From the IMG/VR virus record IMGVR_UViG_3300035661_000054: a DNA stretch of 64,000 bases. The stretch is one strand, 5' to 3'. Of this stretch, positions 13,227-63,672 are shown one piece after another (the first letter of the stretch is position 1; each line of letters begins with the position of its first letter). Below the pieces are notes generated by a model. That model had not been told where the DNA came from. It saw only the letters and a program-made list of their open reading frames with translations, and ran no database searches. Source of the DNA: a virus. Both the position numbers and the translations under genes were made by a program.

Positions 13227-13309
13227 TAGGGGTGGCAGAGTGGTTGAATGCACCTGACTGTAAATCAGGCTCTTAGGACACGTAGGTTCAAATCCTACCC
13301 CTTACACCA
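13227..13309 (+). tRNA. tRNA-Tyr (anticodon GTA), long variable arm
   Basis: Acceptor gtagggg/cccttac, anticodon arm cctga-ctgtaaa-tcagg, T arm gtagg-ttcaaat-cctac. Confidence 0.8.
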
Positions 13310-13400
13310 GAATTGTGGTTCAGTTACTTTGAGAGAAATTTTATTTTTACTGAACCCAGAATGCTCCTCAAAATCCTCCTTATTTGGGTTGAGCTTCTGA

Positions 13401-13474
13401 CCTTGATAAATAACAGCCTTTACGTGGCTTCAAGGATAAGTAGGATTTAAAAATCTGAAACCAATGTTATTAAG
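13401..13474 (+). repeat. inter-tRNA repeat element copy 1 (ccttgataaataacagcctttacgtggcttcaagg + ggatttaaaaatc hairpin)
   Basis: One of 8 related copies between tRNA genes. Confidence 0.8.
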
Positions 13475-13496
13475 AATGTATGGTATATGATTAAAG

Positions 13497-13570
13497 TGGT
13501 GTTGGTGTAATGCAGTAGACTTTTAATCTGTTGATTGATGGTTCGAGTTCATTTTATTCCGCCAGATTTG
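13497..13570 (+). pseudogene. tRNA-Lys(TTT)-like pseudogene (D-arm deletion, poor acceptor/T stems)
   Basis: Shares gtaatgcag.agacttttaatctgttgattgatggttcga with intact tRNA-Lys at 14300 but lacks about 6 nt of D arm and CCA-proximal pairing. Confidence 0.4.
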
Positions 13571-13737
13571 ATCTTTAAAATTGTAAGGAACTTGGCTATA
13601 GTTTTTAAGTATGTTGTAGTAAGGTATTGGGGGTATTTGCTTTAAATGTTTGTTTAATGCGCTTACATTGTTGTTCATTATATGCCTTATAAAATAGGAA
13701 TAATAACACTTGGTAAAAATAATTAAAGTATTAGGAG

Positions 13738-14031
13738 ATGTCATTAATGAATGCGCAACGAAAATATAACAAACTAAAGAAAAGACTTGGTATTGCTAAA
13801 GAATCTATCATTCATCAAATGATTTTGTTATATGGTGATACTAACTTAGCGTATGGTAAAGCGTATACTATTCTAAAGAAATTAACTACTAAAGTCTTAA
13901 AGGAAGTTAAACCTGAAATACTTGATGATGAATACGAGTTTAATAAACATTATTGTAAGAATCAAGTTTATGTTAATTTGAAGCATAGAGGTTTTTCTAA
14001 AATTAAATCAAAATACTTTAGAATTAGATGA
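13738..14031 (+). CDS. hypothetical small basic protein embedded in tRNA array
   Basis: 97-aa ORF with aggag RBS; start may be second ATG at 13747. Confidence 0.3.
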   Translation: MSLMNAQRKYNKLKKRLGIAKESIIHQMILLYGDTNLAYGKAYTILKKLTTKVLKEVKPEILDDEYEFNKHYCKNQVYVNLKHRGFSKIKSKYFRIR

Positions 14032-14040
14032 ATAAGAAAT

Positions 14041-14114
14041 GCGGGATTGATGTAGTGGTAACATGCTATCCTTCCAAGTTGGTCTCAACGGTTCGAATCC
14101 GTTATCCCGCTCCA
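14041..14114 (+). tRNA. tRNA-Gly (anticodon TCC)
   Basis: Acceptor gcgggat/atcccgc perfect; loop c-t-TCC-a-a; anticodon stem has U30-U40 mismatch. Confidence 0.65.
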
Positions 14115-14115
14115 A

Positions 14116-14188
14116 CCATAATTAATAACGGCCTTTACGTGGCTTTAGGGATAAGTAGGATTTAAAAATCTGAAACCAATGTTATTAA
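14116..14188 (+). repeat. inter-tRNA repeat element copy 2
   Basis: ccataattaataacggcctttacgtggctttagggataagtaggatttaaaaatctgaaaccaatgttattaag. Confidence 0.8.
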
Positions 14189-14256
14189 GAATGTAGAGTA
14201 TGTGATTAAAGTAATCCTGCGGTAAGGGATAATGTTTTGATTCTTTATGTTCTTTG

Positions 14257-14285
14257 TTGACATTATTATTTCTTTGAAGTATAAT
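14257..14285 (+). promoter_or_regulatory. sigma70-type promoter TTGACA-N17-TATAAT upstream of tRNA-Lys
   Basis: TTGACA 14257-14262, TATAAT 14280-14285. Confidence 0.55.
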
Positions 14286-14299
14286 GTAAATAAATTAAA

Positions 14300-14374
14300 G
14301 GGGTGGTAGCATAATGGTAATGCAGCAGACTTTTAATCTGTTGATTGATGGTTCGACTCCATCTCATCCCACCA
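14300..14374 (+). tRNA. tRNA-Lys (anticodon TTT)
   Basis: Acceptor ggggtgg/tcatccc, anticodon arm gcaga-cttttaa-tctgt, T arm gatgg-ttcgact-ccatc. Confidence 0.8.
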
Positions 14375-14489
14375 AATTAAATGTTATCAAATGGCTTAAC
14401 ATTTGACGTTTCAATTCATAACGAAAGAATTGACTATGATAGGTAAAGAGAATAGAGTTCCGTAGATCCTATCCTAACTACGGTAAATT

Positions 14490-14565
14490 GCGTGATTGAT
14501 GTTTAATGGTAGCATGTTGTCCTTCCAAGTCAATCGTAGCGGTTCGAATCCGCTATCACGCTCCA
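14490..14565 (+). tRNA. tRNA-Gly (anticodon TCC), second copy
   Basis: Acceptor gcgtgat/atcacgc perfect; same cttccaa loop and same U30-U40 mismatch. Confidence 0.65.
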
Positions 14566-14566
14566 A

Positions 14567-14640
14567 CCCTAATTAATAATAGCCTTTACGTGGCTTTAGG
14601 GATAAGTAAGATTGAGAAAATCTGAAACTAATATTATTAA
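14567..14640 (+). repeat. inter-tRNA repeat element copy 3 (compensatory stem ccctaa/ttaggg)
   Basis: ccctaattaataatagcctttacgtggctttagggataagtaagattgagaaaatctgaaactaatattattaa. Confidence 0.8.
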
Positions 14641-14641
14641 T

Positions 14642-14729
14642 GGAATCGTGGCAGAGCGGTTGAATGCAACGGTCTTGAAAACCGTCGAGGGTAATACCTC
14701 CGTGAGTTCGAATCTCACCGATTCCGCCA
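14642..14729 (+). tRNA. tRNA-Ser (anticodon TGA), long variable arm
   Basis: Acceptor ggaatcg/cgattcc, anticodon arm acggt-cttgaaa-accgt, T arm with ttcgaat. Confidence 0.85.
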
Positions 14730-14795
14730 AATAAATTTGACATATTTATTTTTATTTGTTATAATTCACAAATATGATAATTTAGTCAATTAAAT

Positions 14796-14870
14796 TGGTG
14801 TGTGGCGCAGCGGTAGCGCAGCGGACTGTTAATCCGTTGGTCGTAGGTTCGAATCCTACCATACCAGCCA
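14796..14870 (+). tRNA. tRNA-Asn (anticodon GTT)
   Basis: Acceptor tggtgtg/catacca, D arm gcgc-agcggta-gcgc, anticodon arm gcgga-ctgttaa-tccgt. Confidence 0.8.
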
Positions 14871-14871
14871 A

Positions 14872-14916
14872 CTCTCAAAATAGAACTGGCCTTTATGTGG
14901 CTTGAGAGATAAGTAG
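14872..14916 (+). repeat. inter-tRNA repeat element copy 4 (partial; compensatory stem ctctcaa/ttgagag)
   Basis: ctctcaaaatagaactggcctttatgtggcttgagagataagtag. Confidence 0.7.
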
Positions 14917-15221
14917 TTTGCGATTGTCTTTTTGAATGGCAATTCTAACGAAACCAACAGTTTAGAGTGTGGTAAGCTCGATAGGTTAATGTTAAGCCTA
15001 ATAATGGATAAGAAGGATACTCCAATCCAGATAATTAATTAATGTATTAATTTAGTAACAATCAGGGTAATCCAGATGTTTTAGTCTCGCAAAACGATAA
15101 CAGTTACAACTGTCGAGAATAAATTATTGTTTTTTAATTTGATTAATGAATGAGTTAGATTTGATCACTAATGAGTTTATTGTGGAACTATAGTTTAAAA
15201 GCCTTCAATAACATAAATAAT

Positions 15222-15297
15222 TGCAGAGTAGTAGCAGTGGTAGCTCGTCAGCCTCATAAGCTGAAGGTCGGTGGTTCGAATCCATCCTCTGCGTCCA
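15222..15297 (+). tRNA. tRNA with anticodon CAT (Met elongator, initiator or lysidine-modified Ile2)
   Basis: Acceptor tgcagag/ctctgcg, anticodon arm tcagc-ctcataa-gctga perfect, T arm ggtgg-ttcgaat-ccatc. Confidence 0.8.
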
Positions 15298-15355
15298 AAA
15301 TATTTAGTTAGCTACAGTGATTCAATAATTATTGTAAAAATAATTATAAAAACTA

Positions 15356-15384
15356 TTGACAAATAGAAAAATATGTTTTATAAT
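15356..15384 (+). promoter_or_regulatory. sigma70-type promoter TTGACA-N17-TATAAT
   Basis: TTGACA 15356-15361, TATAAT 15379-15384. Confidence 0.55.
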
Positions 15385-15436
15385 TATTTTATGTTTTTGC
15401 TTAAGTTTTTAAGCGTTATTTTAAAGGAAGAAGAAA

Positions 15437-15562
15437 ATGAACAAAGCTCATATTAATTTTATTAGTGTTGATTTTACAGCTCAAGCTGTAAGCTTTGTTA
15501 CGCCTATGGAATTTGCTATGCCTCAAGCGCAGACTGAGATTAGCGAAAAAGGGACGGGTTGA
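15437..15562 (+). CDS. small ORF (41 aa, MNKAHINFISVDFTAQAVSFVTPMEFAMPQAQTEISEKGTG) with own promoter and terminator inside tRNA array
   Basis: RBS aaggaag 7 nt upstream of ATG; promoter 15356-15384; terminator 15590-15617; not in ORF track because <60 aa. Confidence 0.3.
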   Translation: MNKAHINFISVDFTAQAVSFVTPMEFAMPQAQTEISEKGTG

Positions 15563-15589
15563 TAATACTTCTTTAATTAGATTTTATTT

Positions 15590-15617
15590 AAAACCCGCCA
15601 TTAAAGCGGGTTTTTTT
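15590..15617 (+). terminator. rho-independent terminator
   Basis: aaaacccgccattaaagcgggttttttt. Confidence 0.7.
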
Positions 15618-15620
15618 ATA

Positions 15621-15690
15621 CCTTGATAAATAACAGCCTTTACGTGGCTTCAAGGATAAGTAGGATTAAAATCCGAAACTAATGTTATTA
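15621..15690 (+). repeat. inter-tRNA repeat element copy 5
   Basis: ccttgataaataacagcctttacgtggcttcaaggataagtaggattaaaatccgaaactaatgttattaaa. Confidence 0.8.
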
Positions 15691-15696
15691 AATCGT

Positions 15697-15772
15697 GGGG
15701 TTATGGTATAAATGGCTAACACAGTACCCTTGCAAGGTACAGTTCTGAGTTCGATGCTCAGTGGCTCCACCA
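15697..15772 (+). tRNA. tRNA-Ala (anticodon TGC) with G3-U70
   Basis: Acceptor ggggtta/tggctcc gives G3:U70 wobble; anticodon arm gtacc-cttgcaa-ggtac perfect; T arm ctgag-ttcgatg-ctcag. Confidence 0.8.
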
Positions 15773-15778
15773 AAAAAT

Positions 15779-15854
15779 TGTTTCTTAGCTCAGTTGGTAG
15801 AGCATTCGGCTGATAACCGAAAGGTCACTGGTTCAAATCCAGTAGAAACAACCA
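15779..15854 (+). tRNA. tRNA-Ile (anticodon GAT)
   Basis: Acceptor tgtttct/agaaaca, D arm gctc-agttggtag-agc, anticodon arm ttcgg-ctgataa-ccgaa. Confidence 0.85.
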
Positions 15855-15855
15855 T

Positions 15856-15931
15856 CAGTATGTAGGGAAGTTGGTATCCCACTTGATTTGGATTCAAGAG
15901 ATCGTAGGTTCGAGTCCTACCATACTGACCA
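15856..15931 (+). tRNA. tRNA-Pro (anticodon TGG)
   Basis: Acceptor cagtatg/catactg perfect, anticodon arm cttga-tttggat-tcaag, T arm gtagg-ttcgagt-cctac. Confidence 0.85.
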
Positions 15932-15938
15932 AAAATTT

Positions 15939-16015
15939 GTCTCCTTCGACTATGTTGGTTAGGTCATTACTCTCTCAGGGTGAAAAGATGGGATCGTCGC
16001 CCATAGGAGACTCCA
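15939..16015 (+). tRNA. tRNA-Glu variant (anticodon CTC)
   Basis: Acceptor gtctcct/aggagac perfect; anticodon arm ttact-ctctcag-ggtga; paralogue of Glu(TTC) at 16259; unusual T loop atcgtcg. Confidence 0.6.
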
Positions 16016-16022
16016 AATAAAT

Positions 16023-16099
16023 GGTTAATTAGCTCAGTTGGTTAGAGCGTTTCACTCATAACGAAAAGGTCGGTGGTTCAATTCCACCATTAACCACCA
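16023..16099 (+). tRNA. tRNA with anticodon CAT (second copy; Met or Ile2)
   Basis: Acceptor ggttaat/attaacc perfect; loop c-t-CAT-a-a; A31-C39 mismatch at base of anticodon stem. Confidence 0.75.
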
Positions 16100-16101
16100 A
16101 A

Positions 16102-16173
16102 CCTTGATGAATAACAGCCTTTACGTGGCTTCAAGGATAAGTAGGATTAAAATCCGAAACTAATGTTGTTAAA
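16102..16173 (+). repeat. inter-tRNA repeat element copy 6
   Basis: near-identical to copy 5. Confidence 0.8.
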
Positions 16174-16177
16174 TCGT

Positions 16178-16253
16178 GGGGTTATGGTATAAATGGCTAA
16201 CACAGTACCCTTGCAAGGTACAGTTCTGAGTTCGATGCTCAGTGGCTCCACCA
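16178..16253 (+). tRNA. tRNA-Ala (anticodon TGC), duplicate
   Basis: Identical to 15697-15772. Confidence 0.8.
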
Positions 16254-16258
16254 AAAAA

Positions 16259-16335
16259 GTCTCCTTCGACTATGTTGGTTAGGTCATCACCCTTTCAAGG
16301 TGAAGAGATGGGATCGTCACCCATAGGAGACGCCA
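16259..16335 (+). tRNA. tRNA-Glu (anticodon TTC)
   Basis: Acceptor gtctcct/aggagac; anticodon arm tcacc-ctttcaa-ggtga perfect. Confidence 0.75.
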
Positions 16336-16342
16336 AATAAAT

Positions 16343-16419
16343 GGTTAATTGGCTAAGTTGGTTAGAGTGTTTCACTCATAACGAAAAGGTCGGTGGTTCA
16401 ATTCCACTATTAACAACCA
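16343..16419 (+). tRNA. tRNA with anticodon CAT (third copy; diverged, G1-A72 mismatch)
   Basis: Same anticodon arm as 16023 copy; D arm changed (ggctaagttggttagagtg); 3' acceptor attaaca leaves position 1-72 unpaired. Confidence 0.6.
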
Positions 16420-16421
16420 AA

Positions 16422-16490
16422 CCTTGATGAATAACAGCCTTTACGTGGCTTCAAGGATAAGTAGGATTAAAATCCGAAACTAATGTTATT
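16422..16490 (+). repeat. inter-tRNA repeat element copy 7
   Basis: ccttgatgaataacagcctttacgtggcttcaaggataagtaggattaaaatccgaaactaatgttatt. Confidence 0.8.
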
Positions 16491-16493
16491 GAA

Positions 16494-16581
16494 GGAAGAT
16501 TGTCAGAGTGGTCTATTGTGCTTCTTTGCTAAAGAAGTGGGTTTAATCGCCCCACAGGTTCGAATCCTGTATCTTCCGCCA
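16494..16581 (+). tRNA. tRNA-Ser (anticodon GCT), long variable arm
   Basis: Acceptor ggaagat/atcttcc, anticodon arm cttct-ttgctaa-agaag, variable arm tgggtttaatcgcccca. Confidence 0.85.
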
Positions 16582-16583
16582 AT

Positions 16584-16657
16584 TCAGGGATCGTCTAATG
16601 GTAGGACACGAGACTTTGATTCTCGGTATTGTGGTTCGACTCCATGTCCCTGAGCCA
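16584..16657 (+). tRNA. tRNA-Gln (anticodon TTG)
   Basis: Acceptor tcaggga/tccctga perfect, anticodon arm cgaga-ctttgat-tctcg perfect. Confidence 0.8.
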
Positions 16658-16658
16658 T

Positions 16659-16733
16659 GTTTATTTAGCTTAATGGTAGAGCATTTCGTTTACACCGAAA
16701 GGGTTGGGGGTTCGAATCCCTCAAGAAACACCA
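16659..16733 (+). tRNA. tRNA-Val (anticodon TAC)
   Basis: Anticodon arm tttcg-tttacac-cgaaa, D arm gctt-aatggta-gagc, T arm ggggg-ttcgaat-ccctc. Confidence 0.75.
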
Positions 16734-16737
16734 ACTT

Positions 16738-16811
16738 GCCGCTTTAGTATAATGGCATTACAGTTGACTTGTAATCATCTGATCGCAGTTCGATTCTGTG
16801 AAGCGGCACCA
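16738..16811 (+). tRNA. tRNA-Thr (anticodon TGT)
   Basis: Acceptor gccgctt/aagcggc perfect; loop c-t-TGT-a-a; one U-U mismatch in anticodon stem. Confidence 0.7.
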
Positions 16812-16813
16812 AA

Positions 16814-16884
16814 CCTTGATGAATAACAGCCTTTATGTGGCTTCAAGGATAAGTAGGGTTAAAATCCGAAACTAATGTTATTAA
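16814..16884 (+). repeat. inter-tRNA repeat element copy 8
   Basis: ccttgatgaataacagcctttatgtggcttcaaggataagtagggttaaaatccgaaactaatgttattaatg. Confidence 0.8.
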
Positions 16885-16964
16885 TGGTGAAGTTATTGTA
16901 AAGATAGTATATTGTCTTTGAATAATCTGTTTAGATTTATAATTCCTAACTTCACCCTCAAATT

Positions 16965-17040
16965 GGTCTTGTAGTGTTAGCGGTAAGCACGTAAGCCTGT
17001 CACGCTTATAGGGTGGGTTCGAATCCCATCAAGATCGCCA
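16965..17040 (+). tRNA. tRNA-Asp (anticodon GTC)
   Basis: Acceptor ggtcttg/caagatc, anticodon arm taagc-ctgtcac-gctta perfect, T arm gtggg-ttcgaat-cccat. Confidence 0.8.
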
Positions 17041-30276: not shown

Positions 30277-31689
30277 TTAAGAATTACTTAATCTTTGTTC
30301 TGCTTGTTCTGCCAAAGGCGATCTAACAGTATCATTTAATATCAAAGAACCTGAACCACTCCAACCTTGCATTCTTTTAACTACGTGAGTTAACCCAGAA
30401 GTGTTTTCAGTCATGTAAGGCGTATCTATTTGAGCTAAGTTGCCCATACAAATAATTTTAGTTCCTTCGCCCGCTCTGGTTAATAGCATTCTCATTTCTT
30501 TAGGAGATAGATTTTGAGCTTCATCAATAATAATGAATCTATGTTGGAATGAACGACCACGCATAAAGCCAATAGATTTAACTTCAATTTTATCCAATAT
30601 AAATTGCATTGAATCCTTTTTAGCGGATAAAGCTCCGTGTGTTTTCTTTTCTGCTTCTTTGTCAAAATTCATTAAGGATTCAAGGTTATCATACATGTTA
30701 CCCATCCAGGCAGCCATTTTTTCTTCTTCAGTGCCTGGTAGGAAACCTATTTCTTCACCAACAGTAACCGTTGCTCTTGTTATCAATATTTTTGAGTAAA
30801 TATTTTCATCCAACACTTGTTCCAATCCAGCGGCAAGAGTTAAAAGTGTTTTACCAGTTCCAGCAGGTCCTAACAATGTAACAAAAGAAACAGATGGATC
30901 TAATAAAAGATTTAATGCTAAATTTTGCTCAAGATTTTTAGATTTTATACCCCAAACCTTTGACTTGTTTGTGTAATCCATTACTTTTTTAGCTTTAACT
31001 AATTTCCCTTCTTCTGTTTCTTCCAAGTAAACAACTTGATAAAACATATCCTCATCCTCATCTATACAAATAAAGTTATTGTAATTGATTTCTATTTTTG
31101 CTTCTTTATCTAAACAAAATGTAATAAAATCTTTATTTTTTTCATGTTCAGCAATTAAATCTCCACAAAGATCTTCGCAATCTAAATAAACAATTCCTGT
31201 TGATAGTAGCTCATTATCTTTAATAGCGTAATCGTTTTCATAGTCTTCAGTAGTCATTCCAAGAGAGCTGCCTTTAATTCTGACATTAATATCTTTTGAA
31301 ACAAGAATTACGTCTAAATATTTTTTGTTTTTTGATTTATTTGATAATTCAAGTTGAATTAAAGCTTGAGAAATAATAATATTATCGTTTACATTTGAAC
31401 CACTTTTTTCCAAATCTTCTTTACTTAATTTTGAAAAAAACAATCTTCCTAAATTTTCACCCAATTCAAAACCATTATTTAAATCTTCATTGTTAATTAC
31501 TGATTCAATCATTCTTGATGCTTGTCTTGCATTTCTTGATATTTCAGTTTGTCCTTTTTTATGTTTATCTAATTCTTCTAAGACGGTAAAAGGTATAAAT
31601 ACATCATGTTCTTGAAATTTAAAAATAGAACTTGGGTCACTAATTAAAACATTAGTATCTAATACAAATAACTTTTTATTTTTTCTCAT
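30277..31689 (-). CDS. phoH: PIN-domain / PhoH-like ATPase (YlaK-type)
   Basis: N-terminal PIN (FVLDTNVLISDP), C-terminal PhoH core with Walker A LLGPAGTGKT and Walker B IIIDEAQN. Confidence 0.85.
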   Translation of the reverse strand: MRKNKKLFVLDTNVLISDPSSIFKFQEHDVFIPFTVLEELDKHKKGQTEISRNARQASRMIESVINNEDLNNGFELGENLGRLFFSKLSKEDLEKSGSNVNDNIIISQALIQLELSNKSKNKKYLDVILVSKDINVRIKGSSLGMTTEDYENDYAIKDNELLSTGIVYLDCEDLCGDLIAEHEKNKDFITFCLDKEAKIEINYNNFICIDEDEDMFYQVVYLEETEEGKLVKAKKVMDYTNKSKVWGIKSKNLEQNLALNLLLDPSVSFVTLLGPAGTGKTLLTLAAGLEQVLDENIYSKILITRATVTVGEEIGFLPGTEEEKMAAWMGNMYDNLESLMNFDKEAEKKTHGALSAKKDSMQFILDKIEVKSIGFMRGRSFQHRFIIIDEAQNLSPKEMRMLLTRAGEGTKIICMGNLAQIDTPYMTENTSGLTHVVKRMQGWSGSGSLILNDTVRSPLAEQAEQRLSNS

Positions 31690-33514: not shown

Positions 33515-34633
33515 ATGAATATCAATGACATGAAGTTAGCTTTAGAGCGTGAAGAAATTCGAGTTCGTAATGAAACTGTGGATGGTGTTAATTTATCTAT
33601 TGTTTCTTATATGGTAGCAACTCCTGATTTATGGGATGTTGAAAATGCATTGGAGGCTCGTGGCATTACTTTTGACGAAAATGGTAATTGTGTTGCTCGT
33701 ACTATGGAAAAATTCTTTAATGTTGGTGAAAATAAATACACTCAACTTTCTGAATCTGATTTTTTAGGTTCTTATGTTTTTGATAAGCTTGATGGTTCTA
33801 TGATTTCCGTTGTTATGATTAATGGAAAATTATTTGCTAAAAGTAAGAAGTCTTTTTATTCCGATGTTGCTTTAATGGCTCAAAAATTTATTGATATTAA
33901 TCAGAATTATCAAGAATTTTGTAGAAGAATTATTGGTTCTGGTTATACTCCTACATTTGAGTTTGAATCTCCTGATGCTCAAATTGTAGTAGAACAAAAA
34001 GAAGAAAAAATGACTTTGCTTTTGGTTAGGGATATTGAAAGTGGAAAATATCTTGAATTTGATTGTTTAGTAAATTTGGCTAAAGAGTACAATATTCCTG
34101 TTGTAAGTGGCATGTGTTTTGATGATTTTTATAATCGTTTTTTGGTTTCTCAAGATGAAAACTTTTTAGATTTTTTACGAAAAAATGTAAAAGATGTTGA
34201 AGGTTGGGTTTTCTTGTTATCAACTGGACAACGTGTTAAATTAAAAACTGATTGGTATTTGTTGCGTCATCGTTTAACTTCTTATCATGAGAGAAATATT
34301 TTTGATTTAATTATTAATGAAGAGATTGATGATATTATGCCTTTGATTGAGAAAAAAGATGGTGCTGTTGATATTGTTAATCAAATTGGTCATCGTATTG
34401 CTCATTTTTATAAAGTTACTATGGATGAAACTATTGGTTTAGTTAATTTATGGAAAGAACAAGGTTTATCTTTATCTGAGATTGGTAAAAATTACTCAAA
34501 TAATATTTATTTTGGTTTAGCGATCAAATTATTCAAAGAACAAGAGCCAGATTATAAAAAATTTATTGTCAATACTTACCGTAAGGATTTCCACACTAAA
34601 TCTGTTTTTTGGGGTTTTGATACTGATTCCTAA
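33515..34633 (+). CDS. rnlA: RNA ligase 1 (T4 RnlA-like)
   Basis: CVARTMEKFFNVGEN vs T4 IASRPMEKFFNLNEN; LDGSMISVV vs EDGSLVSTY; PTFEFESPDAQIVV...KMTLLLVRDIESGKYLEFD vs T4 ANFEFVAPTNRIVL...KIILLNVRENETGEYISYD. Confidence 0.8.
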   Translation: MNINDMKLALEREEIRVRNETVDGVNLSIVSYMVATPDLWDVENALEARGITFDENGNCVARTMEKFFNVGENKYTQLSESDFLGSYVFDKLDGSMISVVMINGKLFAKSKKSFYSDVALMAQKFIDINQNYQEFCRRIIGSGYTPTFEFESPDAQIVVEQKEEKMTLLLVRDIESGKYLEFDCLVNLAKEYNIPVVSGMCFDDFYNRFLVSQDENFLDFLRKNVKDVEGWVFLLSTGQRVKLKTDWYLLRHRLTSYHERNIFDLIINEEIDDIMPLIEKKDGAVDIVNQIGHRIAHFYKVTMDETIGLVNLWKEQGLSLSEIGKNYSNNIYFGLAIKLFKEQEPDYKKFIVNTYRKDFHTKSVFWGFDTDS

Positions 34634-39690: not shown

Positions 39691-40695
39691 ATGAAGGCAT
39701 ATATCACTATTGGAGTTTCAGCTTCAGGTAAAACAACCTGGACTAATCAATTTTTAAAAAACCATGAAATGCTTTTAAAATCAGGAAAATCTTCTGGTGT
39801 TTATTGTAATATTAATTTTGATGAAATCAGGGCTTTGGTTTTGGTTGAAATGGGTATTATAAAATCTATTGAGGATTTTTCTTGGGATTTATGGAATCTA
39901 AAATACGAAAAAGCCATGTCTAAAAAAGCAAAATATATTTTTGATAATGCTGTCGCACAGGGTTGTTTTATTATTTTGTCTAATACAAACCTAAATAAAG
40001 ATAATCTTATTGCCAAAACAAAAGAGCTTGAATCTTTAGGTTATTCTGTTGAGTGGGTTTATTTTGATATTTCTTATGATGAAGCTTTGAAACGTGATGC
40101 TGGTCGTAAAAATGGTGTTGGTGCTTATGTTATTCGTAAACAATGGAAAAGCTATCTTGAGTTGAAGAGTAAAAGTTTTGTAGTTGAAAATGCTAAATAT
40201 ATATCTTCACTTTGCTCAGTTCAGGCTATTGAACCTTATGTTTTTTCTGATGAAAAAACAGAAGCTTTGATGTTTGACATTGATGGTACTATTGCCAATA
40301 TGGTTGACAGAAGAGCTTATGATTGGGATAAAGTTGGTCAAGATAAGCCAGATTTTGTTATGCAAATTTTAATTGACGGTTGGCTTTCTTTGGGTAAAAA
40401 AATCGTTTTCCTTAGTGGTCGTGATGGTCAATGTTATAAAGAAACTAAAGAATGGATTTTAAAGTATTTTTCAAAAGTTGATTTTGATAAAGAAAAAGGA
40501 AATTCAGTTCTTTTCATGCGTGAACATCAAGATATGAGAAAAGATTATATTGTAAAAAAAGAAATTTTTGATAATAAAGTTAGAAATTCTTATAATATTA
40601 TTGCTGTTTTTGATGATCGTCCTCAAGTGGTTAGGATGTGGCATGATTTAGGTTTAAAAGTTTGGTCTACTGGCGATCAGTTAATTGATTTTTAG
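39691..40695 (+). CDS. pseT: polynucleotide 5'-kinase / 3'-phosphatase (T4 Pnk-like)
   Basis: N-terminal P-loop GVSASGKTTW kinase domain; C-terminal HAD-type phosphatase with FDIDGT (DxDGT) motif. Confidence 0.8.
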   Translation: MKAYITIGVSASGKTTWTNQFLKNHEMLLKSGKSSGVYCNINFDEIRALVLVEMGIIKSIEDFSWDLWNLKYEKAMSKKAKYIFDNAVAQGCFIILSNTNLNKDNLIAKTKELESLGYSVEWVYFDISYDEALKRDAGRKNGVGAYVIRKQWKSYLELKSKSFVVENAKYISSLCSVQAIEPYVFSDEKTEALMFDIDGTIANMVDRRAYDWDKVGQDKPDFVMQILIDGWLSLGKKIVFLSGRDGQCYKETKEWILKYFSKVDFDKEKGNSVLFMREHQDMRKDYIVKKEIFDNKVRNSYNIIAVFDDRPQVVRMWHDLGLKVWSTGDQLIDF

Positions 40696-46162: not shown

Positions 46163-46888
46163 TTGAAAACAATTATTTTTGCTGATGGTGATAATTTTTC
46201 ATATAAAAGATTGGGCGATGTTATTCAATGTATTGGTAAAACAACAAAATTGAGTATTAAGTTATTTGCCAATCATATAGGTTTGATTGATTGCTGGAAA
46301 AAAGAAATTATTAAATATGGTTTTGAATCTGTTAATATCTTTCAAAGTAAATTTGGTAAAAAGAATTCGAGTGACATTGTTTTAAGTGTTGAGGCATTAA
46401 AGTCTCTTTACGAAGAAGATTGGGATAGATTTGTTTTTATTAGTGGTGATGGTGATTTTGCTTATTTATTTAAAACAATTAAAAACAATAAAAAAATTGT
46501 AAGTATTTTTAGTGGTGAACATTCTTCTTGTGCGTCAAGATTAGAATGTACTGATTATCATATTTTATATGAAAAATCAATGGTTAATGTTGAGAGAAAT
46601 GACACTGGTTATTCTTTTTATACTAAATATTTTAATAAAAGCATTGCGCATAAAAAGTTAATGGTTGTAAAAAGAATTAATGATTTGATAAATTTAGCTG
46701 GAAATGATGGTTGTGTTGAAATTCCTGGTTCTCTGTTAAGAGAGATGTCTGCGAAAGAAGGTATTATAGTAAGTAAAAGAAATACTAAAAAACACATAGA
46801 ACATCTTGGTTTTTCTCTTGTTGCTAAAGACAAAAGGGTTTATGTTTGCAAAGGCGAACATACAGATTATTTACTAAGTTTGATTTAA
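46163..46888 (+). CDS. NYN/LabA-like domain protein (putative RNase)
   Basis: TTG start after RBS aaaggtgatg; IIFADGDNF ... FISGDGDF match NYN core. Confidence 0.55.
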   Translation: MKTIIFADGDNFSYKRLGDVIQCIGKTTKLSIKLFANHIGLIDCWKKEIIKYGFESVNIFQSKFGKKNSSDIVLSVEALKSLYEEDWDRFVFISGDGDFAYLFKTIKNNKKIVSIFSGEHSSCASRLECTDYHILYEKSMVNVERNDTGYSFYTKYFNKSIAHKKLMVVKRINDLINLAGNDGCVEIPGSLLREMSAKEGIIVSKRNTKKHIEHLGFSLVAKDKRVYVCKGEHTDYLLSLI

Positions 46889-49905: not shown

Positions 49906-50562
49906 TTAAAGCATTTTATCCATTTCTGCCATGATTCTCATAGCTGGAGTTGATTTAATCATTTCTTCAAAATATTGACGACAAATACTGTGAGTTTTAT
50001 CATCCATTTTAAAGCCTTTTGAAATTGAAAAACGATACGCTCTCATAATTCTGAGTTTGTCTTCATTTATTCTGTCTTTAGCTTTTCCTACAAATCTGAG
50101 CTTTTTAGATTTAATATCTTCCAAACCCAAACCAGTAGGATCAATTATTTTATCATTTACTATATCGTAATACAAAGCATTAACTGTAAAGTCTCTGCGA
50201 TTAGCATCATCAAATATAGTGCCTATTGAAGTTGAATCAGGTCTCCTACCATCGGTATAAGTACCATCTTTTCGATATAAAGCAATTTCAAACTGTTGTT
50301 CGTTCTTACTTACAATCATAACAAGAAAGTTTTTTCCTGCTTCATTTACTTGCCAGTTGTTTGAGGCGAAAGCCTCTTTAATATCATCAAGATTTCCATT
50401 GCAAACAATGTCAAAATCTTTAATTTTATGACTTTCTTTATGATAAAGATTGGTTAAATAATCTCTAACACAACCACCAACCAACATAACCTCTGATGAA
50501 CAACTTTTTAAAATTAAAAAAAGTTGTAAAAGAGTGTTATTTTTTTCGATTGTTTCTATCAT
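49906..50562 (-). CDS. cca: tRNA nucleotidyltransferase (CCA-adding enzyme) head domain protein
   Basis: GGCVRD, DFDIV (DxD), RRDFTVNALYYD signatures of class II Pol-beta CCA-adding/poly(A) polymerase head; only 218 aa. Confidence 0.75.
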   Translation of the reverse strand: MIETIEKNNTLLQLFLILKSCSSEVMLVGGCVRDYLTNLYHKESHKIKDFDIVCNGNLDDIKEAFASNNWQVNEAGKNFLVMIVSKNEQQFEIALYRKDGTYTDGRRPDSTSIGTIFDDANRRDFTVNALYYDIVNDKIIDPTGLGLEDIKSKKLRFVGKAKDRINEDKLRIMRAYRFSISKGFKMDDKTHSICRQYFEEMIKSTPAMRIMAEMDKML

Positions 50563-51362: not shown

Positions 51363-51391
51363 TTGACTTTTAAAAAAACTTATGATATAAT
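51363..51391 (+). promoter_or_regulatory. sigma70-type promoter TTGACT-N17-TGaTATAAT
   Basis: TTGACT 51363-51368, TGATATAAT 51383-51391. Confidence 0.6.
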
Positions 51392-51421: not shown

Positions 51422-51691
51422 ATGTTGTTTTTTAATTGGGTATTGTTTGGGGTTTCAATACTTATTGCTCTTTCTGTTTTTGTTTCTGGTTCTTATTACG
51501 TAGTAACTCATAATGGAGTTTTACTTTTTGCTTTCATGGTTCCAATATTTTTACTTATTTCTTTTATTACTTTTATCTCAATGGTGCTTTTTAGTAACGC
51601 AGTTTTTTCTATTTTCTCTAAAAGAAAATTAAATCCTAATCTAATGTTGTATTGTTTAGATAGAACAATTTCTGTTATTCGTTCAAAATAA
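51422..51691 (+). CDS. small membrane protein (3 TM)
   Basis: 89-aa hydrophobic ORF behind strong promoter; RBS aaggaggtttttttaATG. Confidence 0.4.
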   Translation: MLFFNWVLFGVSILIALSVFVSGSYYVVTHNGVLLFAFMVPIFLLISFITFISMVLFSNAVFSIFSKRKLNPNLMLYCLDRTISVIRSK

Positions 51692-51744
51692 CTATTGACA
51701 AACATTATTTGGTTTGTTATACTTATATCAAATGGTTGTGGTCT

Positions 51745-52037
51745 TAAGACATAGTTAAATATTTTTAAGCATCTGGAAGGCGGTTCGATTCCGCCCATCT
51801 CCACCAAAAAATATATTGTTTAGTATGTTTTTTAATGGGGATGACCAGGTTTCGACAGGTGTGTTAAGGGTATTGATGACAACTTCGCAAGGTGGAAGCG
51901 ATCTCTCTATGAGAAAAGAAACAAAAAAATAAATGCAAACGACGAAAACTTTGCTATTGCAGCTTGATACTGCTTGGGTTTGAGATACCTCTAAACAGAA
52001 CATCTCAATCGAACCTTACCTAACGGTAAGGTTTTTT
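51745..52037 (+). ncRNA. ssrA: tmRNA (ssrA), apparently circularly permuted two-piece form
   Basis: Acceptor piece ends 51806 with T arm ggcgg-ttcgatt-ccgcc, 3' acceptor catctcc, A, CCA. Coding piece starts 51837 with ggggatgaccaggtttcgacagg (GGGGnUGA..GGnUUCGACGGG tmRNA 5' consensus), pairs with G3-U70. Tag ORF 51935-51967 is gcaaacgacgaaaactttgctattgcagcttga (ANDENFAIAA-stop). Terminator 52011-52037. 5' boundary of acceptor piece uncertain. Confidence 0.6.
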
Positions 52038-52042
52038 AATTA

Positions 52043-52119
52043 GCACAGGTGTCAGAGTGGTCTATTGAGGTGGATTGCAAATCCATTGTTCAGCGGTTCG
52101 AATCCGCTCTTGTGCTCCA
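52043..52119 (+). tRNA. tRNA-Cys (anticodon GCA)
   Basis: Acceptor gcacagg/cttgtgc, anticodon arm gtgga-ttgcaaa-tccat, T arm agcgg-ttcgaat-ccgct, 3' tcca. Confidence 0.75.
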
Positions 52120-52193: not shown

Positions 52194-53228
52194 GTGTCTA
52201 ATGTTTTTATGATGATTTCTGGTGGAATTGATTCTATGGTTTTAGCTCAATATTATGTTAATAATGGTATTGAATTTAAAGCTATTTTTATTGATGATTC
52301 AGAATATTCTAAAGGTGTTTGTTCTAAAAATGTTGTGGAATTATTTTGTCAAAAAAACAATATTAAATTGTATCAAAAAAAATATGTTAAAAATAAAAAC
52401 GGAAACAATAACCTTGAAGCGAATATGAGAGATTTTAGATATAATTTTGCTTTTGAAGTTATGGCTGGTTTTGAAAATCCTATCTTAATTACAGCTCATC
52501 ATTTAAATGATCGTGTTGAAACAATGCTAATGAATTTTGTTAGAGGTTCTGGTGTTTTAGGATTGAGTAATATGAATGAAATTGAATCTAAAAACAAAGG
52601 TTTTAATTATCAGCATCATCGTCCTTTTATTAATAAATCAAAAAATGAAATTAAATTAATGGCTAATGAATACGGATTTATTGAAAATATTCATTATGTT
52701 GAGGATTTAACTAATAATGATACTGATATTACAAGAAACTGGTTTCGTCATAATGTTGTTAATAAAATTATGAGTGAATTTTCTCATAAAGGTATTTCTC
52801 GTAGCTTTGAGCTTCTTTCTCAAGAAAGTGTTGATTTAAATAATTTAAAAATTAACTTAGAAGATGGTTATATTTGTAGTGATTTTATTGATATGAATTG
52901 CATTAATAAAAGTCAGGTTTATTATTTGGCTAAAAAGTTTTTTGAAAAATCTGGTATTGCTTTTACAAAAAAAGGTGCGGAGTTGTTTGCATGGCTCATT
53001 TTTAACGGAAAGGAATTTTCTTTAAGAAGTAAAAATGGTGACATTCAATTTGGTTTTACTATTATTTCTAATGAAGAATCAAATGATGATTTTGAATCAA
53101 ATAAGTTTATTAAAGTTTTTGCAATTAATAAAAATGAAAAACAAGAGTGTAAGCAAAAATTTGATCAACATACAAAATATCTGTATGTTTCACCAAAATT
53201 AAGATTTTACAATATTAATATCTATTAA
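52194..53228 (+). CDS. tilS: tRNA(Ile)-lysidine synthetase TilS-like PP-loop ATPase
   Basis: N-terminal PP-loop ISGGIDS (SGGxDS), HHLNDRVETMLMN downstream as in TilS/MesJ N-domain; 344 aa. Confidence 0.65.
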   Translation: MSNVFMMISGGIDSMVLAQYYVNNGIEFKAIFIDDSEYSKGVCSKNVVELFCQKNNIKLYQKKYVKNKNGNNNLEANMRDFRYNFAFEVMAGFENPILITAHHLNDRVETMLMNFVRGSGVLGLSNMNEIESKNKGFNYQHHRPFINKSKNEIKLMANEYGFIENIHYVEDLTNNDTDITRNWFRHNVVNKIMSEFSHKGISRSFELLSQESVDLNNLKINLEDGYICSDFIDMNCINKSQVYYLAKKFFEKSGIAFTKKGAELFAWLIFNGKEFSLRSKNGDIQFGFTIISNEESNDDFESNKFIKVFAINKNEKQECKQKFDQHTKYLYVSPKLRFYNINIY

Positions 53229-62598: not shown

Positions 62599-63672
62599 AT
62601 GAAAAAAGTTTTTAAATTTCCATCAATCGAAAGTTTTAGTTCTATTGTTAAAAATGTTCGTGAAAAAGCTAAATTTGTTGGTTTAGATGATGAAGGTAAA
62701 GCAATTTTTGATGAAACCTTACGTGCGCCTGTTTACGAATTTCATGGTACTGTAAAGATTCATGGTACAAATTCTTCTATTTGTTACAATGAAAAGCATG
62801 GTTTATGGGTTCAGTCTCGCACAAACATTATTACGCCTTTAAGTGATAATGCTGGTTTTGCTGGTTACGTAGAGGCTAATAAAGAAGCTTTTATGGAATT
62901 GATTAAAGACTATGTTTCTAAAAATAATCTTGATGTTTCTGAAAATACCATTTGCATTTATGGGGAGTGGTGTGGTGGTTCTATTCAAAAAGGTGTTGCA
63001 GTAAACAAATTAAGTAAAATGTTTGTTATTTTTGGTATTAAATTAATGCAAGAAACGGATGAGATTGATCCAGAAACTGGTGAAGTTTTATTAAAGGGTT
63101 CTTGGTTGAATCATGTTGGTGTTAAGAATGAATCTATTCGATGCTATAATATCGAAGATTTTCCAACATTTAAGGTTGTTGTTGATTTTGAAAACCCTAA
63201 GCTTTCTAAAAATGAAATTGTTGATTTAACGATTCAAGTTGAGGAAAAATGTCCTGTTGGTCTTAAATTTGGTGTTGAAGGTATCGGAGAGGGTATTGTT
63301 TTCTCTTGTACTCTTGATGATGGAAGTGTAATTCGTTTTAAATCAAAAGGTGAAAAACACTCCAAAACTAAAGTAAAAGTATTAAAAGAAGTTGATAATG
63401 AACTTGAGGCTTTAAAACAAGGTTTGGCTTTAGAATTAACTCCAGATTGGCGTGTTGATCAAGCTATTCAAGAAGTATTTAATACTTTAAATAATGGTGT
63501 TGTTGACGTGAAAGGTTTGGGTGATGTTATTAAGTGGGTATTGGCTGATATTGTTAAAGAAGAAATTCATAAATTAGCGGAAGCTAAAATTGAATTAAAG
63601 CAATTATCTTCTTATATTTCTGCTAATGTTAAAAAACGATTCTTTGTTGTTTTGAAAGAAAATTTAGTTTAA
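62599..63672 (+). CDS. rnlB: RNA ligase 2 (T4 Rnl2-like)
   Basis: FKFPSIESF...KIHGTNSSI (motif I KxHGTN) parallels T4 Rnl2 KYSSLENHY...KIHGTNFSL; EWCGGSIQKGV vs EFAGPGIQKNV. Confidence 0.7.
   Translation: MKKVFKFPSIESFSSIVKNVREKAKFVGLDDEGKAIFDETLRAPVYEFHGTVKIHGTNSSICYNEKHGLWVQSRTNIITPLSDNAGFAGYVEANKEAFMELIKDYVSKNNLDVSENTICIYGEWCGGSIQKGVAVNKLSKMFVIFGIKLMQETDEIDPETGEVLLKGSWLNHVGVKNESIRCYNIEDFPTFKVVVDFENPKLSKNEIVDLTIQVEEKCPVGLKFGVEGIGEGIVFSCTLDDGSVIRFKSKGEKHSKTKVKVLKEVDNELEALKQGLALELTPDWRVDQAIQEVFNTLNNGVVDVKGLGDVIKWVLADIVKEEIHKLAEAKIELKQLSSYISANVKKRFFVVLKENLV

Follow-up and report, generated by a model that had tools for sequence, protein, structure and literature searches.

The stretch of DNA under analysis, referred to here as the window, comprises 64,000 nucleotides of the IMG/VR virus record IMGVR_UViG_3300035661_000054 and belongs to a large phage. 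It encodes RIIB, Rnl1, Pnkp, Rnl2, PhoH, NAMPT, a RecD2/Dda-like helicase, a CCA-adding enzyme and a TilS-like enzyme, while 24 tRNAs are carried by the phage besides the tmRNA detailed below. Searches based on the RecD2-like, SbcD-like, Rnl1 and PhoH products returned phages of various Proteobacteria and Firmicutes at 28 to 41% identity, the best isolate matches of Rnl1 being the Ralstonia jumbo phage RsoM2USA and Stenotrophomonas phages of the Mendera/Marzo type (approximately 37% amino-acid identity). No smpB was detected in the window by tblastn with an E. coli SmpB query, a search that a divergent phage SmpB could escape, and one may be located outside the window.

Within the window, this AT-rich phage carries a complete permuted two-piece tmRNA gene of the "betaproteobacterial" type, in which the acceptor piece precedes the coding piece. 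The features of the locus, all on the plus strand, are as follows.

51695..51723, + strand: sigma-70-type promoter (TTGACA, 17-nt spacer, TATACT; 11/12 consensus matches), whose -10 box is of the extended kind, being preceded by TG
51730..51806, + strand: acceptor piece, ~77 nt (from the sequence and the ARAGORN 3' tRNA domain; helices from RNAcofold and RNAfold)
51734-51739, 51741-51743 and 51758-51775, + strand: 3'-side strands of P2, within the acceptor piece
51744-51757, + strand: 14-nt internal loop or mini-hairpin of the acceptor piece
51779-51795, + strand: T arm (GGCGG 51779-51783, loop TTCGATT, CCGCC 51791-51795)
51796-51802, + strand: 3' acceptor strand CAUCUCC, followed by the discriminator A (51803) and an encoded CCA (51804-51806)
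51807..51836, + strand: intervening sequence of 30 nt, with a 12-bp hairpin (51806-51817 with 51822-51833) stacked on the acceptor stem, ending in AAU before G1
51837 to ~52037, + strand: coding piece, ~200 nt (from ARAGORN, Rfam, folding and pair comparison)
51837-51843, + strand: 5' acceptor strand GGGGAUG, the first part of the coding piece
51844-51855, + strand: D-loop analogue ACCAGGUUUCGA, after the 5' acceptor strand
51856-51884, + strand: 5'-side strands of P2, before PK1; an A-rich linker lies between PK1 and the tag frame
51885..51910, + strand: PK1 (stem 1, UCGC 51885-51888 with GCGA 51898-51901; stem 2, 51892-51896 with 51906-51910)
51935..51967, + strand: tag frame GCA AAC GAC GAA AAC TTT GCT ATT GCA GCT TGA, encoding ANDENFAIAA
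51980..52008, + strand: post-tag hairpin of 7 bp (UUGAGAU/AUCUCAA), aligning to the penultimate RF01850 hairpin and found in the MFE and centroid folds
52011..52037, + strand: 3'-terminal hairpin (52011-52034) and U run, an intrinsic terminator at the 3' end of the coding piece (terminator scan), aligning to the last RF01850 hairpin
52043..52119, + strand: tRNA-Cys(GCA), a complete, separate tRNA 6 nt past the U run (ARAGORN and Rfam)

The initial annotation of this region had proposed a permuted tmRNA of the kind known from alphaproteobacteria and some cyanobacteria, and had named ARAGORN and Rfam as the means to verify it. ARAGORN, when applied to the window, called the locus as "tmRNA* permuted" with the tag ANDENFAIAA, and two Rfam models were matched above their gathering scores by cmscan, namely, RF01850 (beta_tmRNA; 131.3 bits versus a gathering score of 84, E = 9e-40) and RF04321 (tmRNA_permuted; 112 bits versus a gathering score of 47, E = 5e-21), the latter being covered full-length across model positions 1-213. 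RF01850 represented the top match of clan CL00001 at the locus, with one weaker overlapping clan match suppressed; as clan competition retains the best match alone, RF01849 (alpha) and RF01851 (cyanobacterial) carry no individual scores here. The permuted two-piece order is supported by ARAGORN, Rfam and the structure-keeping substitutions of a second haplotype, while the proposed lineage requires correction, the best match being to a third, "beta" type (RF01850). Every sequence feature named in that annotation was found at its place, and their combination is far beyond what chance would produce. The locus matches RF01850 by both sequence and structure, yet its carrier is a phage, which, like other phage copies, lies outside the nominal betaproteobacterial taxon.

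The tRNA-like domain was assessed on the basis of a 7-bp acceptor stem, a G3-U70 pair, the discriminator A, a GGUUCGAnUCC T arm and the D-loop analogue GGUUUCGAC. An alanine-tRNA-like domain is present in its entirety, incorporating G3-U70, the discriminator A, the T stem GGCGG/CCGCC and ACCAGGUUUCGAC. The 5' half, GGGGATGACCAGGTTTCGACAGG, begins at position 51837, and its GGGGAUG (51837-51843) forms the expected 7-bp stem with CAUCUCC, in which G51839-U51800 constitutes the G3-U70 pair. In a reading without a permuted gene, the CCA element would terminate an ordinary tRNA or tRNA fragment, and GGGGATG would begin a one-piece tmRNA whose 3' half is located elsewhere or has been lost. The flanking tRNA-Cys gene could, in principle, mislead in this regard, and the next T-loop-like element after the tag does belong to it rather than to a tmRNA 3' half; however, this tRNA folds completely on its own, using its own acceptor stem (GCACAGG/CTTGTGC), and is no partner for the GGGGATG 5' end, as had been surmised. 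Neither ARAGORN nor Rfam called a tRNA over positions 51730-51806, so that the CCA element is not part of a complete tRNA, and no second CAYCYCC-N-CCA occurs in the 64-kb window, the sole instance being that at 51796, upstream of the coding piece. Because this single 3' acceptor half is located upstream of, and not following, the tag, a one-piece gene (RF00023) is excluded. Furthermore, a pairing of approximately 27 bp joins the strand that precedes the T arm to the one directly after the 5' half, as permuted models require. No actual support was found for the non-permuted reading, which is already refuted and to which we assign a negligible probability.

The two halves are separated by the intervening sequence, which would be lost on maturation. 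Its hairpin appears in both the MFE and centroid folds and, in a comparison of spacers, was given -6.3 kcal/mol and z = -3.1 (row L058, the window's own contig), and its sequence resembles those of the spacers at loci L038 and L020. Although their sequences differ, most spacers of 25 to 37 nt, the majority of which come from beta-type loci, adopt a comparable hairpin, whereas those of 10 to 21 nt do not; as a mark of the beta type, this hairpin represents an observation drawn from these loci rather than a curated criterion.

Folding of the two pieces (RNAcofold) and of the precursor (RNAfold; -84.2 kcal/mol, z = -4.13) consistently produced the acceptor stem, T arm, spacer hairpin, a long P2 and the terminal hairpins. 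P2 is composed of the pairings 51758-51775/51856-51874, 51741-51743/51875-51877 and 51734-51739/51879-51884, amounting to approximately 27 AU/GU-rich base pairs; it follows the GGUUUCGAC position, as RF01850 demands, and is set apart from the consensus through approximately 12 to 14 inserted nt. The cmscan alignment of this part was poor, with four non-pairing positions flagged, and the middle of P2 is unlike the Rfam beta consensus. The alignment offered by cmscan for RF01850 positions 1 to 50-70 was rejected, as it set the -10 box on the -35 region of the model and AGUUA (51753-51757) on the GGUUG strand, creating non-pairs. GGUUGU at 51734-51739 is preferred because it fits the promoter spacing, the complement ACAACU (51879-51884) and the MFE structure, the P2 model across 51734-51757 being founded on thermodynamics and promoter spacing as opposed to covariation.

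Downstream of P2, stem 1 of PK1 is aligned by RF04321, while stem 2 was derived by hand; other beta-type loci harbor a hairpin plus a downstream complement at the same position. Where the initial annotation had envisaged PK1 to PK4, PK1 alone is present, and the tag is followed by simple hairpins, as in the beta-type model, in place of PK2-PK4. The tag frame itself, as originally read at 51935-51967, is corroborated by ARAGORN, which found its resume consensus, and by the alignment of both Rfam models to the tag region. AUAAAU precedes the resume codon GCA (51935), and a small hairpin (51959-51962 with 51970-51973) holds the UGA stop codon (51965-51967) in its loop.

Transcription is predicted to start near position 51730. 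The P2 strand GGTTGT begins 10 nt past the -10 box, compared to 9 nt from UAuAAU to gGUUGU in the Rfam beta consensus, and the second haplotype has an identical promoter sequence. With the promoter beginning at 51695, a start near 51730 and the P2 strand GGTTGT at 51734-51739, the gene start first assigned, 51745, is too far downstream by approximately 11 to 15 nt. The promoter (51695-51723) and terminator (52011-52037) bracket a precursor of approximately 310 nt, the terminator having been correctly anticipated, since the terminator scan identified the hairpin at 52011-52034 followed by a T run. No promoter-like site for tRNA-Cys was found between 51723 and 52134, and this tRNA adjoins the tmRNA in the second haplotype also; it may be co-transcribed with the tmRNA through read-through, without being a part of it. 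The terminal hairpin, the weak U run of the second haplotype and the promoterless tRNA-Cys may, tentatively, point to a shared precursor from which RNase P would release both the 5' end of the coding piece and the tRNA.

The second haplotype is represented by contigs L089 and L093-L098, which originate from other metagenomes or sequencing runs and share 96.3% identity with the window; these close relatives were reached solely via the TilS-like protein cluster, of which member P0041 was left out. The phage is present in samples SRR11723145, SRR27869036, the SRR227461xx runs and JGI 3300036715. All of the 81 proposed pairs form in both haplotypes, and no substitution breaks a helix, in a comparison of two distinct haplotypes only and with a weak shuffle control, in which 53 of 500 shuffles reach the observed values. 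Three compensatory double changes were apparent. PK1 stem 2 contains one of them (G51895-C51907 in the window, A-U in its counterpart), and the terminal hairpin contains the other two (52013-52032, A-U to G-C; 52020-52025, C-G to U-A), together with one G-U to A-U change. Three single changes are wobble-compatible; P2 retains all of its pairs in both haplotypes with two wobble-compatible changes, and the sole substitution in the post-tag hairpin (51980-52008) is situated in the loop, at 51992. The junction at 51807-51836 is the same in the independent contigs L089 and L093-L098. Because pairs are kept with compensatory changes, the tmRNA is, on this comparative evidence, judged to be under structural selection across the pairing between its two pieces, PK1 and the terminal hairpin. 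Two antisense open reading frames were also considered as genes and rejected, namely, 51508-51807 and 51755-52003, the latter being considered noncoding because five amino-acid changes result from seven substitutions.

A freshly captured copy of a host ssrA gene, or a remnant of attP-type integration, would represent a passenger without phage function. The ssrA gene is a frequent integration site, and prophages do hold ssrA fragments (PMC9004378, PMC11915505); moreover, the tRNA-like domain and tag of the window are near-identical to those of Gallionellaceae MAGs (ANDENFAMAA). However, both halves, the promoter and the terminator are present, which is not the content of a 3' fragment, and the same locus recurs in the second haplotype with structure-preserving changes. 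The GC content of the tmRNA gene is 37.7%, in a phage of 29% GC, versus 50 to 56% in bacterial look-alikes, and P2 has been remade with A-U and G-U pairs, which argues for a long stay in an AT-rich genome and against recent capture. The context is, in addition, that of a large, virulent-type phage, with no integrase among the 26 window ORFs screened. A passenger of this kind is, in our assessment, very unlikely.

We consider it highly probable, on the basis of the sequence features and comparisons described above, that the phage encodes a functional ssrA gene at this locus, one which is circularly permuted and belongs to the beta-type two-piece class. By homology, we infer a two-piece state, alanylation and tagging for the window tmRNA; the two-piece form of tmRNA was reportedly established in Caulobacter by Keiler et al. 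in 2000. RNase P is proposed to cut 5' of G51837, and 3' trimming would expose the CCA end at 51806, producing an acceptor RNA of approximately 77 nt and a coding RNA of approximately 200 nt, which would remain joined by the 7-bp acceptor stem and the AU/GU-rich P2 of approximately 27 bp. The host AlaRS would then charge the CCA end through recognition of G3-U70 and the discriminator A73, and host SmpB and EF-Tu would bring the complex to stalled ribosomes. Translation is presumed to resume at GCA 51935, adding (A)ANDENFAIAA and thus targeting the product to host proteases, while the UGA stop codon would free the ribosome. The benefit to the phage is likely to be that ribosome rescue is kept running as host transcription and mRNA integrity collapse in infection, a role proposed because of the host-type promoter and the presence, in a large phage, of 24 tRNAs, a CCA-adding enzyme, a TilS-like enzyme, Pnkp, Rnl1 and Rnl2.

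Alternatively, the RNA may be made and yet act against the host, either as a decoy which titrates SmpB or AlaRS and so blocks trans-translation in the host, or by re-tagging host proteins so as to recycle amino acids. A decoy role of this kind has been proposed for an RNA of mycobacteriophage DS6A which consists of a tRNA-like domain only and is inhibitory in E. coli (PMC11915505, PMC4131195), and selective tagging of host proteins has been raised as a possible role of the tmRNA of phage Melnitz (PMC9004378). The host-type, probably early, promoter of the tmRNA gene is compatible with such a function, as is the single internal residue (E to K) by which the tag of the second haplotype, ANDKNFAIAA, differs, its frame being intact. 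A decoy, however, could dispense with a maintained coding apparatus, yet PK1 has undergone a compensatory change, and both haplotypes keep intact AUAAAU-GCA, a frame of 10 codons, the canonical ...AIAA terminus and the stop codon; tagging is, in any case, the ordinary activity of a tmRNA. An anti-host function is, therefore, deemed improbable, and ribosome rescue remains the preferred role.

The initial annotation had also suggested that a phage-borne permuted tmRNA would hint at the host lineage. This hint is weak, because Stenotrophomonas phages carry the beta type and the type carried by the OM43 phage Melnitz differs from that of its host, its gene being of the alpha type while its host lies on another branch (PMC9004378). 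It is conceivable, though we hold this only tentatively and regard it as less than an even prospect, that beta-type permuted ssrA circulates among large phages in a portable translation-support module (tRNAs, CCA-adding enzyme, TilS) and was not captured from the current host. If so, this 29%-GC phage would infect a host with a tmRNA of another type, its RNA would depend on an SmpB, an AlaRS and protease adaptors that are foreign to it, and the tag, with its NFAIAA end and E/K polymorphism, would be host-tuned. While the locus opens no new category and the tmRNA alone does not identify the host, it adds a divergent, very AT-rich, clean and complete example to the known two-piece tmRNAs of phages, it indicates that P2 can be rebuilt almost wholly from A-U and G-U pairs, and it is useful for annotation of an uncultured phage lineage. 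It also bears on the question of why large phages hold ribosome-rescue RNAs beside sets of tRNAs and RNA-repair enzymes.

A blastn search of 50,697 phage records with the locus as query matched tRNA-Cys only, with no similar isolate-phage tmRNA at that sensitivity, and an IMG/VR search for related loci from the TilS-like neighbor returned no relatives. Pattern scans for the permuted tRNA-like domain collected 57 viral (IMG/VR), 6 genomic and 23 metagenomic loci, none of which is close, identity to any collected tmRNA other than that of the second haplotype being approximately 65% at most. Twenty of the 57 IMG/VR loci were scanned with Rfam, and 19 of these 20 matched best as beta type. Phage-borne permuted tmRNAs are already documented in isolates and frequent in IMG/VR. 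The exact tag ANDENFAIAA is absent from the other collected loci and from the literature searched.

A beta-type "third lineage" of two-piece tmRNA was reportedly described by Sharkady and Williams in 2004 in betaproteobacteria of the Nitrosomonadales/Rhodocyclales type. The bacterial beta-type gene (RF01850) shares with the window the order of P2 3' strand, T arm, acceptor CCA strand and hairpin spacer of approximately 30 nt, followed by the acceptor 5' strand, P2, one pseudoknot, the tag and two hairpins, with a promoter directly before GGUUGU. Six MAGs of Gallionellaceae/Nitrosomonadales share the tRNA-like-domain pattern of the window and encode the tag ANDENFAMAA, one residue removed from ANDENFAIAA, although the genome pattern was narrow and built on the window's own acceptor stem, such that these Gallionellaceae matches are a biased sample, which does not place the gene phylogenetically. 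The window gene differs from these bacterial genes in overall sequence (approximately 53 to 55% identity), in its 29%-GC phage carrier, in the longer continuous A-U/G-U helix of the middle of P2, whose acceptor strand bears a 14-nt asymmetric loop or mini-hairpin, in the sequence of PK1 and in its stop codon (UGA rather than UAA).

Among cultured phages, Stenotrophomonas phages vB_SmaS-DLP_6 (KU682439) and Marzo (MZ326868; Menderavirus) carry beta-type permuted tmRNAs. Like the window gene, these and the other phage beta-type genes (L001-L057) are permuted, mostly match RF01850 best, possess a hairpin spacer, encode AND...(L/I)AA tags and are often located beside tRNA genes; however, the best of them reaches approximately 65% over the gene, their flanking genes are not shared with the window save for a distant PhoH, and the IMG/VR loci range from 33 to 66% GC versus 29% for the window. 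Alpha-type genes are found in the Pelagibacter phages HTVC008M and Mosig, the OM43 phage Melnitz and phiCbK-like Caulobacter phages, the tmRNA gene of Melnitz being located behind an early promoter and proposed to support host translation (PMC9004378). The alpha-type and cyanophage two-piece tmRNAs are likewise permuted ssrA genes of large phages, but fall within another permuted lineage (RF01849 or RF01851); the alpha-scoring or unclassified IMG/VR loci possess short, unstructured spacers of 10 to 21 nt, unlike the window, and the window has no glutamine riboswitch match at Rfam gathering thresholds. Finally, the one-piece tmRNAs of the mycobacteriophage Bxz1 group, Bacillus phage G and Streptomyces and Lactococcus phages resemble the window gene in harboring a tag frame and in usually residing in tRNA-rich genomes, whereas they are colinear, with the 5' half, coding region and 3' half in succession, while the 3' half of the window gene lies upstream.

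The initial annotation had proposed a permuted (two-piece) tmRNA gene at 51745-52037, and ARAGORN indeed called a permuted tmRNA ("tmRNA*") at 51714-52058 with the tag ANDENFAIAA. The Rfam 15 models RF01850 (beta_tmRNA) and RF04321 (tmRNA_permuted) matched at 131.3 bits (gathering score 84, E = 9e-40) and 112 bits (gathering score 47, E = 5e-21), respectively. The elements on which the proposal was founded are present as described: a tRNA-like 3' half with the T arm GGCGG-TTCGATT-CCGCC (51779-51795) and the 3' acceptor strand CATCTCC (51796-51802), followed by the discriminator A and a CCA ending at 51806; a 5' half, GGGGATGACCAGGTTTCGACAGG, beginning at 51837 after a 30-nt spacer; a 7-bp pairing of the acceptor strands, including G51839-U51800, the G3-U70 alanine determinant; the tag frame GCA AAC GAC GAA AAC TTT GCT ATT GCA GCT TGA (51935-51967); and a terminator, comprising a hairpin and T run, at 52011-52037. 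The arrangements named in that annotation as capable of overturning it were each checked in the window, and each fails. A one-piece gene is contradicted by the upstream CAYCYCC-N-CCA, which is the sole such element in the whole 64-kb window; the upstream CCA element is not part of a complete tRNA, as ARAGORN and Rfam call no tRNA there; and the nearby tRNA-Cys is complete in its own right, acceptor stem included. Where pseudoknots PK1 to PK4 had been anticipated, only PK1 is present, PK2-PK4 being absent as in the beta-type model.

Folding of the two pieces together, or of the whole precursor, produced a single coherent structure (-84.2 kcal/mol, z = -4.13), in which the T arm and acceptor stem were recovered along with P2, the helix joining the acceptor and coding pieces. 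The elements of the transcription unit are as follows.

51695-51723: near-consensus sigma-70 promoter (TTGACA, 17 nt, TATACT); a TG precedes the -10 box
51734-51739: putative first (distal) P2 strand, GGTTGT, 10 nt past the -10 box
51734-51739 with 51879-51884: P2 pairing, predicted fold
51741-51743 with 51875-51877: P2 pairing, predicted fold
51758-51775 with 51856-51874: P2 pairing, predicted fold, one bulge at 51863
51806-51817 with 51822-51833: 12-bp spacer hairpin, predicted fold
51885-51888 with 51898-51901: PK1 stem 1
51892-51896 with 51906-51910: PK1 stem 2
Between PK1 and the tag: A-rich linker, ending in AUAAAU just before the resume codon
51980-51986 with 52002-52008: 7-bp hairpin after the tag
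3' close of the gene: terminator hairpin

Transcription probably starts near 51730, and 51734-51739 would represent the first strand of P2, since the spacing of GGTTGT from the -10 box is comparable to that of the Rfam beta consensus (UAuAAU, 9 nt, then gGUUGU). The start at 51709 reported by Rfam is an alignment artefact, as cmscan moved the 5' flank of RF01850 by approximately 25 nt in the AT-rich window and thereby mis-assigned the distal P2 strand; the cmscan alignment of the P2 region, which flagged mispairs, was set aside in favour of the coherent fold. The RF01850 model itself carries a bacterial promoter in this unpaired flank (model positions 1-70 versus window 51709-51757). A 4-bp hairpin carries the tag stop codon in its loop.

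The adjoining TilS-like gene is a member of a protein cluster (at least 90% identity) present in several other metagenomes, and the same tmRNA locus was found in contigs L089 and L093-L098, forming a second haplotype 96.3% identical to the window. Nine of the 16 differences across 436 nt fall within the 81 proposed pairs, and pairing is kept in all nine. These comprise three compensatory double changes, namely G51895-C51907 to A-U in PK1 stem 2 and, in the terminal hairpin, A52013-U52032 to G-C and C52020-G52025 to U-A, as well as three wobble-compatible single changes (51759, 51773 and 52011). The other differences lie in loops, linkers, the region before the transcription start, the U run, the tag (GAA to AAA, giving ANDKNFAIAA) and tRNA-Cys (G-U to A-U). 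Sliding the partners by 1 to 3 columns reduced pairing from 100% to 43-49%, with the loss of all double changes; in a shuffle control, which is weak because there are only two haplotypes, the observed values were reached in 53 of 500 shuffles. RNA evolution at the locus is structure-preserving, which points to selection on the RNA. An antisense open reading frame (ORF) across the locus was rejected as a gene, since seven substitutions cause five amino-acid changes in it. Within the acceptor piece, GUC-UUAA-GAC (51741-51750) may constitute a 3-bp mini-hairpin, the loop of which is GUAA, a GNRA tetraloop, in the second haplotype; it could form in competition with the modelled 51741-51743/51875-51877 pairing of P2.

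The locus is demonstrated here to be a self-contained transcription unit with permuted order, all helices of the tRNA-like domain, P2, PK1 and an intact tag frame, and its processing and activity may be projected from established tmRNA biology. Two-piece tmRNA was reportedly described in Caulobacter by Keiler, Shapiro and Williams in 2000, and its beta lineage reportedly by Sharkady and Williams in 2004. By analogy, RNase P would cut before G51837, the 3' end would be trimmed to the CCA at 51806 with loss of the spacer hairpin, and the acceptor and coding RNAs would remain paired. Host AlaRS, SmpB and EF-Tu would then use this two-RNA complex to rescue stalled ribosomes, adding AANDENFAIAA; a search of the window revealed no smpB. 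Taken as a whole, this functional rescue reading is considered highly probable, and only a small weight is assigned to the locus being a decoy and, likewise, to its being a passenger. The promoter, being of host type, suggests that the gene is expressed early. With translation and RNA-repair genes as neighbours, the tmRNA may help host ribosomes to stay productive during infection, the same ribosome-support role having been proposed for the tmRNA of OM43 phage Melnitz (PMC9004378).

The window is viral, and additionally encodes RIIB, PhoH, NAMPT, a RecD2/Dda-like helicase, an SbcD-like nuclease and glutathionylspermidine synthase, together with the following features.

12634-17040, plus strand: array of 23 tRNA genes
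33515-34633, 39691-40695 and 62599-63672: T4-style RNA repair set (RNA ligase 1, polynucleotide kinase/phosphatase, second RNA ligase)
46163-46888: NYN-domain (ribonuclease-like) protein
49906-50562, minus strand: short CCA-adding or poly(A)-polymerase-head enzyme, 218 aa, 1.2 kb upstream of the tmRNA
51422-51691, plus strand: small ORF immediately preceding the tmRNA promoter, 89 aa, hydrophobic on visual inspection
52043-52119: tRNA-Cys beside the tmRNA, beginning 6 nt past the terminator U run
52194-53228, plus strand: TilS-like PP-loop enzyme, 344 aa, directly after the tmRNA and tRNA-Cys

The nearest homologues in isolates, including Stenotrophomonas Menderavirus, Ralstonia RsoM2USA, Xanthomonas XaC1 and other jumbo phages, share only 28-41% amino-acid identity. 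The 89-aa ORF, which has no family match, possesses its own near-consensus promoter (51363-51391) and is kept as a 90-aa gene in related contigs. No promoter of its own was detectable for tRNA-Cys in a promoter scan, and in the second haplotype the terminator U run is interrupted (TTTCTAATT; L093 2839-2850 versus window 52032-52043); it seems likely that tmRNA and tRNA-Cys are co-transcribed by read-through. The CCA-adding gene is complete in L093, and in L089 (3300-3554) it retains the C-terminal 85 residues only. In the tRNA array, a block from tRNA-Ala(TGC) to Glu-Met occurs twice (15697-16099 and 16178-16419) and two tRNA-Gly(TCC) are present; tRNA gene calling returned no Arg, His or Phe tRNAs in the window. 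The TilS-like protein is shorter than bacterial TilS (~440 aa) and lacks the C-terminal domains of the latter. Three tRNAs bear a CAT anticodon ("tRNA-Met"; 15222, 16023 and 16343), one of which may be a tRNA-Ile2 needing lysidine; it would then form a phage-encoded decoding pair with the TilS-like enzyme.

A scan of IMG/VR with a degenerate pattern (acceptor 3' strand, CCA, spacer, acceptor 5' strand) matched 57 contigs, all of which ARAGORN called as permuted tmRNA; Rfam, applied to 20 of these, assigned 19 to the beta type and one to the alpha type. Most spacers of 25-37 nt (mostly beta-type loci) harbor a hairpin, with differing sequences, and those of 10-21 nt harbor none; in sequence, the window spacer is similar to the L038 and L020 spacers. 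PK1 directly follows P2 in other beta-type loci, positioned as in the window. No relative collected by the pattern scans is close, the best overall identity being ~65%, with bacterial look-alikes at ~53-55%. PhoH homologues lie within a few kb of beta-type permuted tmRNAs in many unrelated viral contigs from IMG/VR and their JGI metagenome copies (L017, L020, L031, L034, L035, L038, L044-L046, L052, L057, L065, L068 and L082), whereas the window PhoH (30391-30885) is 20 kb from the tmRNA.

A narrower pattern, built on the window's own acceptor stem and biased accordingly, retrieved six bacterial species only, all Gallionellaceae/Nitrosomonadales metagenome-assembled genomes, whose tag, ANDENFAMAA, is one residue removed from that of the window. 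These contigs have a GC content of 50-59%, to which the 29% GC window is a poor fit despite the shared tRNA-like domain. The tmRNA gene has 37.7% GC versus 28.9% for the window and its P2 consists mostly of A-U and G-U pairs, a composition which indicates that the gene has long resided in an AT-rich genome. The initial annotation had further suggested that a phage-borne permuted tmRNA would hint at the host lineage; however, the host cannot safely be read from the beta type. Permuted tmRNAs of this type occur in the cultured Stenotrophomonas phages DLP_6 and Marzo (RF01850, 103.7 and 94.6 bits; tags ANDDSFAPMAIAA and VAANDDSYTVRIAA). The tmRNA of their Xanthomonadales host is probably of the standard one-piece kind. 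The Melnitz gene is of alpha type although its host lies on the other branch (PMC9004378).

The first phage-encoded tmRNAs to become known date back to Bxz1. A survey of 18,146 phage genomes reported 133 unique tmRNAs, 53 of them permuted, with permuted entries including Caulobacter, Pelagibacter, Synechococcus, Stenotrophomonas and Bordetella phages (PMC9004378, Table S1), and the 2025 tmRNA database from which RF04321 originates holds 79 phage sequences (PMC11915505). The tag ANDENFAIAA was absent from all other collected loci and from the literature searched. As phage tmRNAs, permuted ones included, are already documented, the locus is a divergent addition to a known kind which standard tools detect at once, distinguished, besides this tag, by its very low GC content, a rebuilt P2 with an extra loop and natural compensatory changes.
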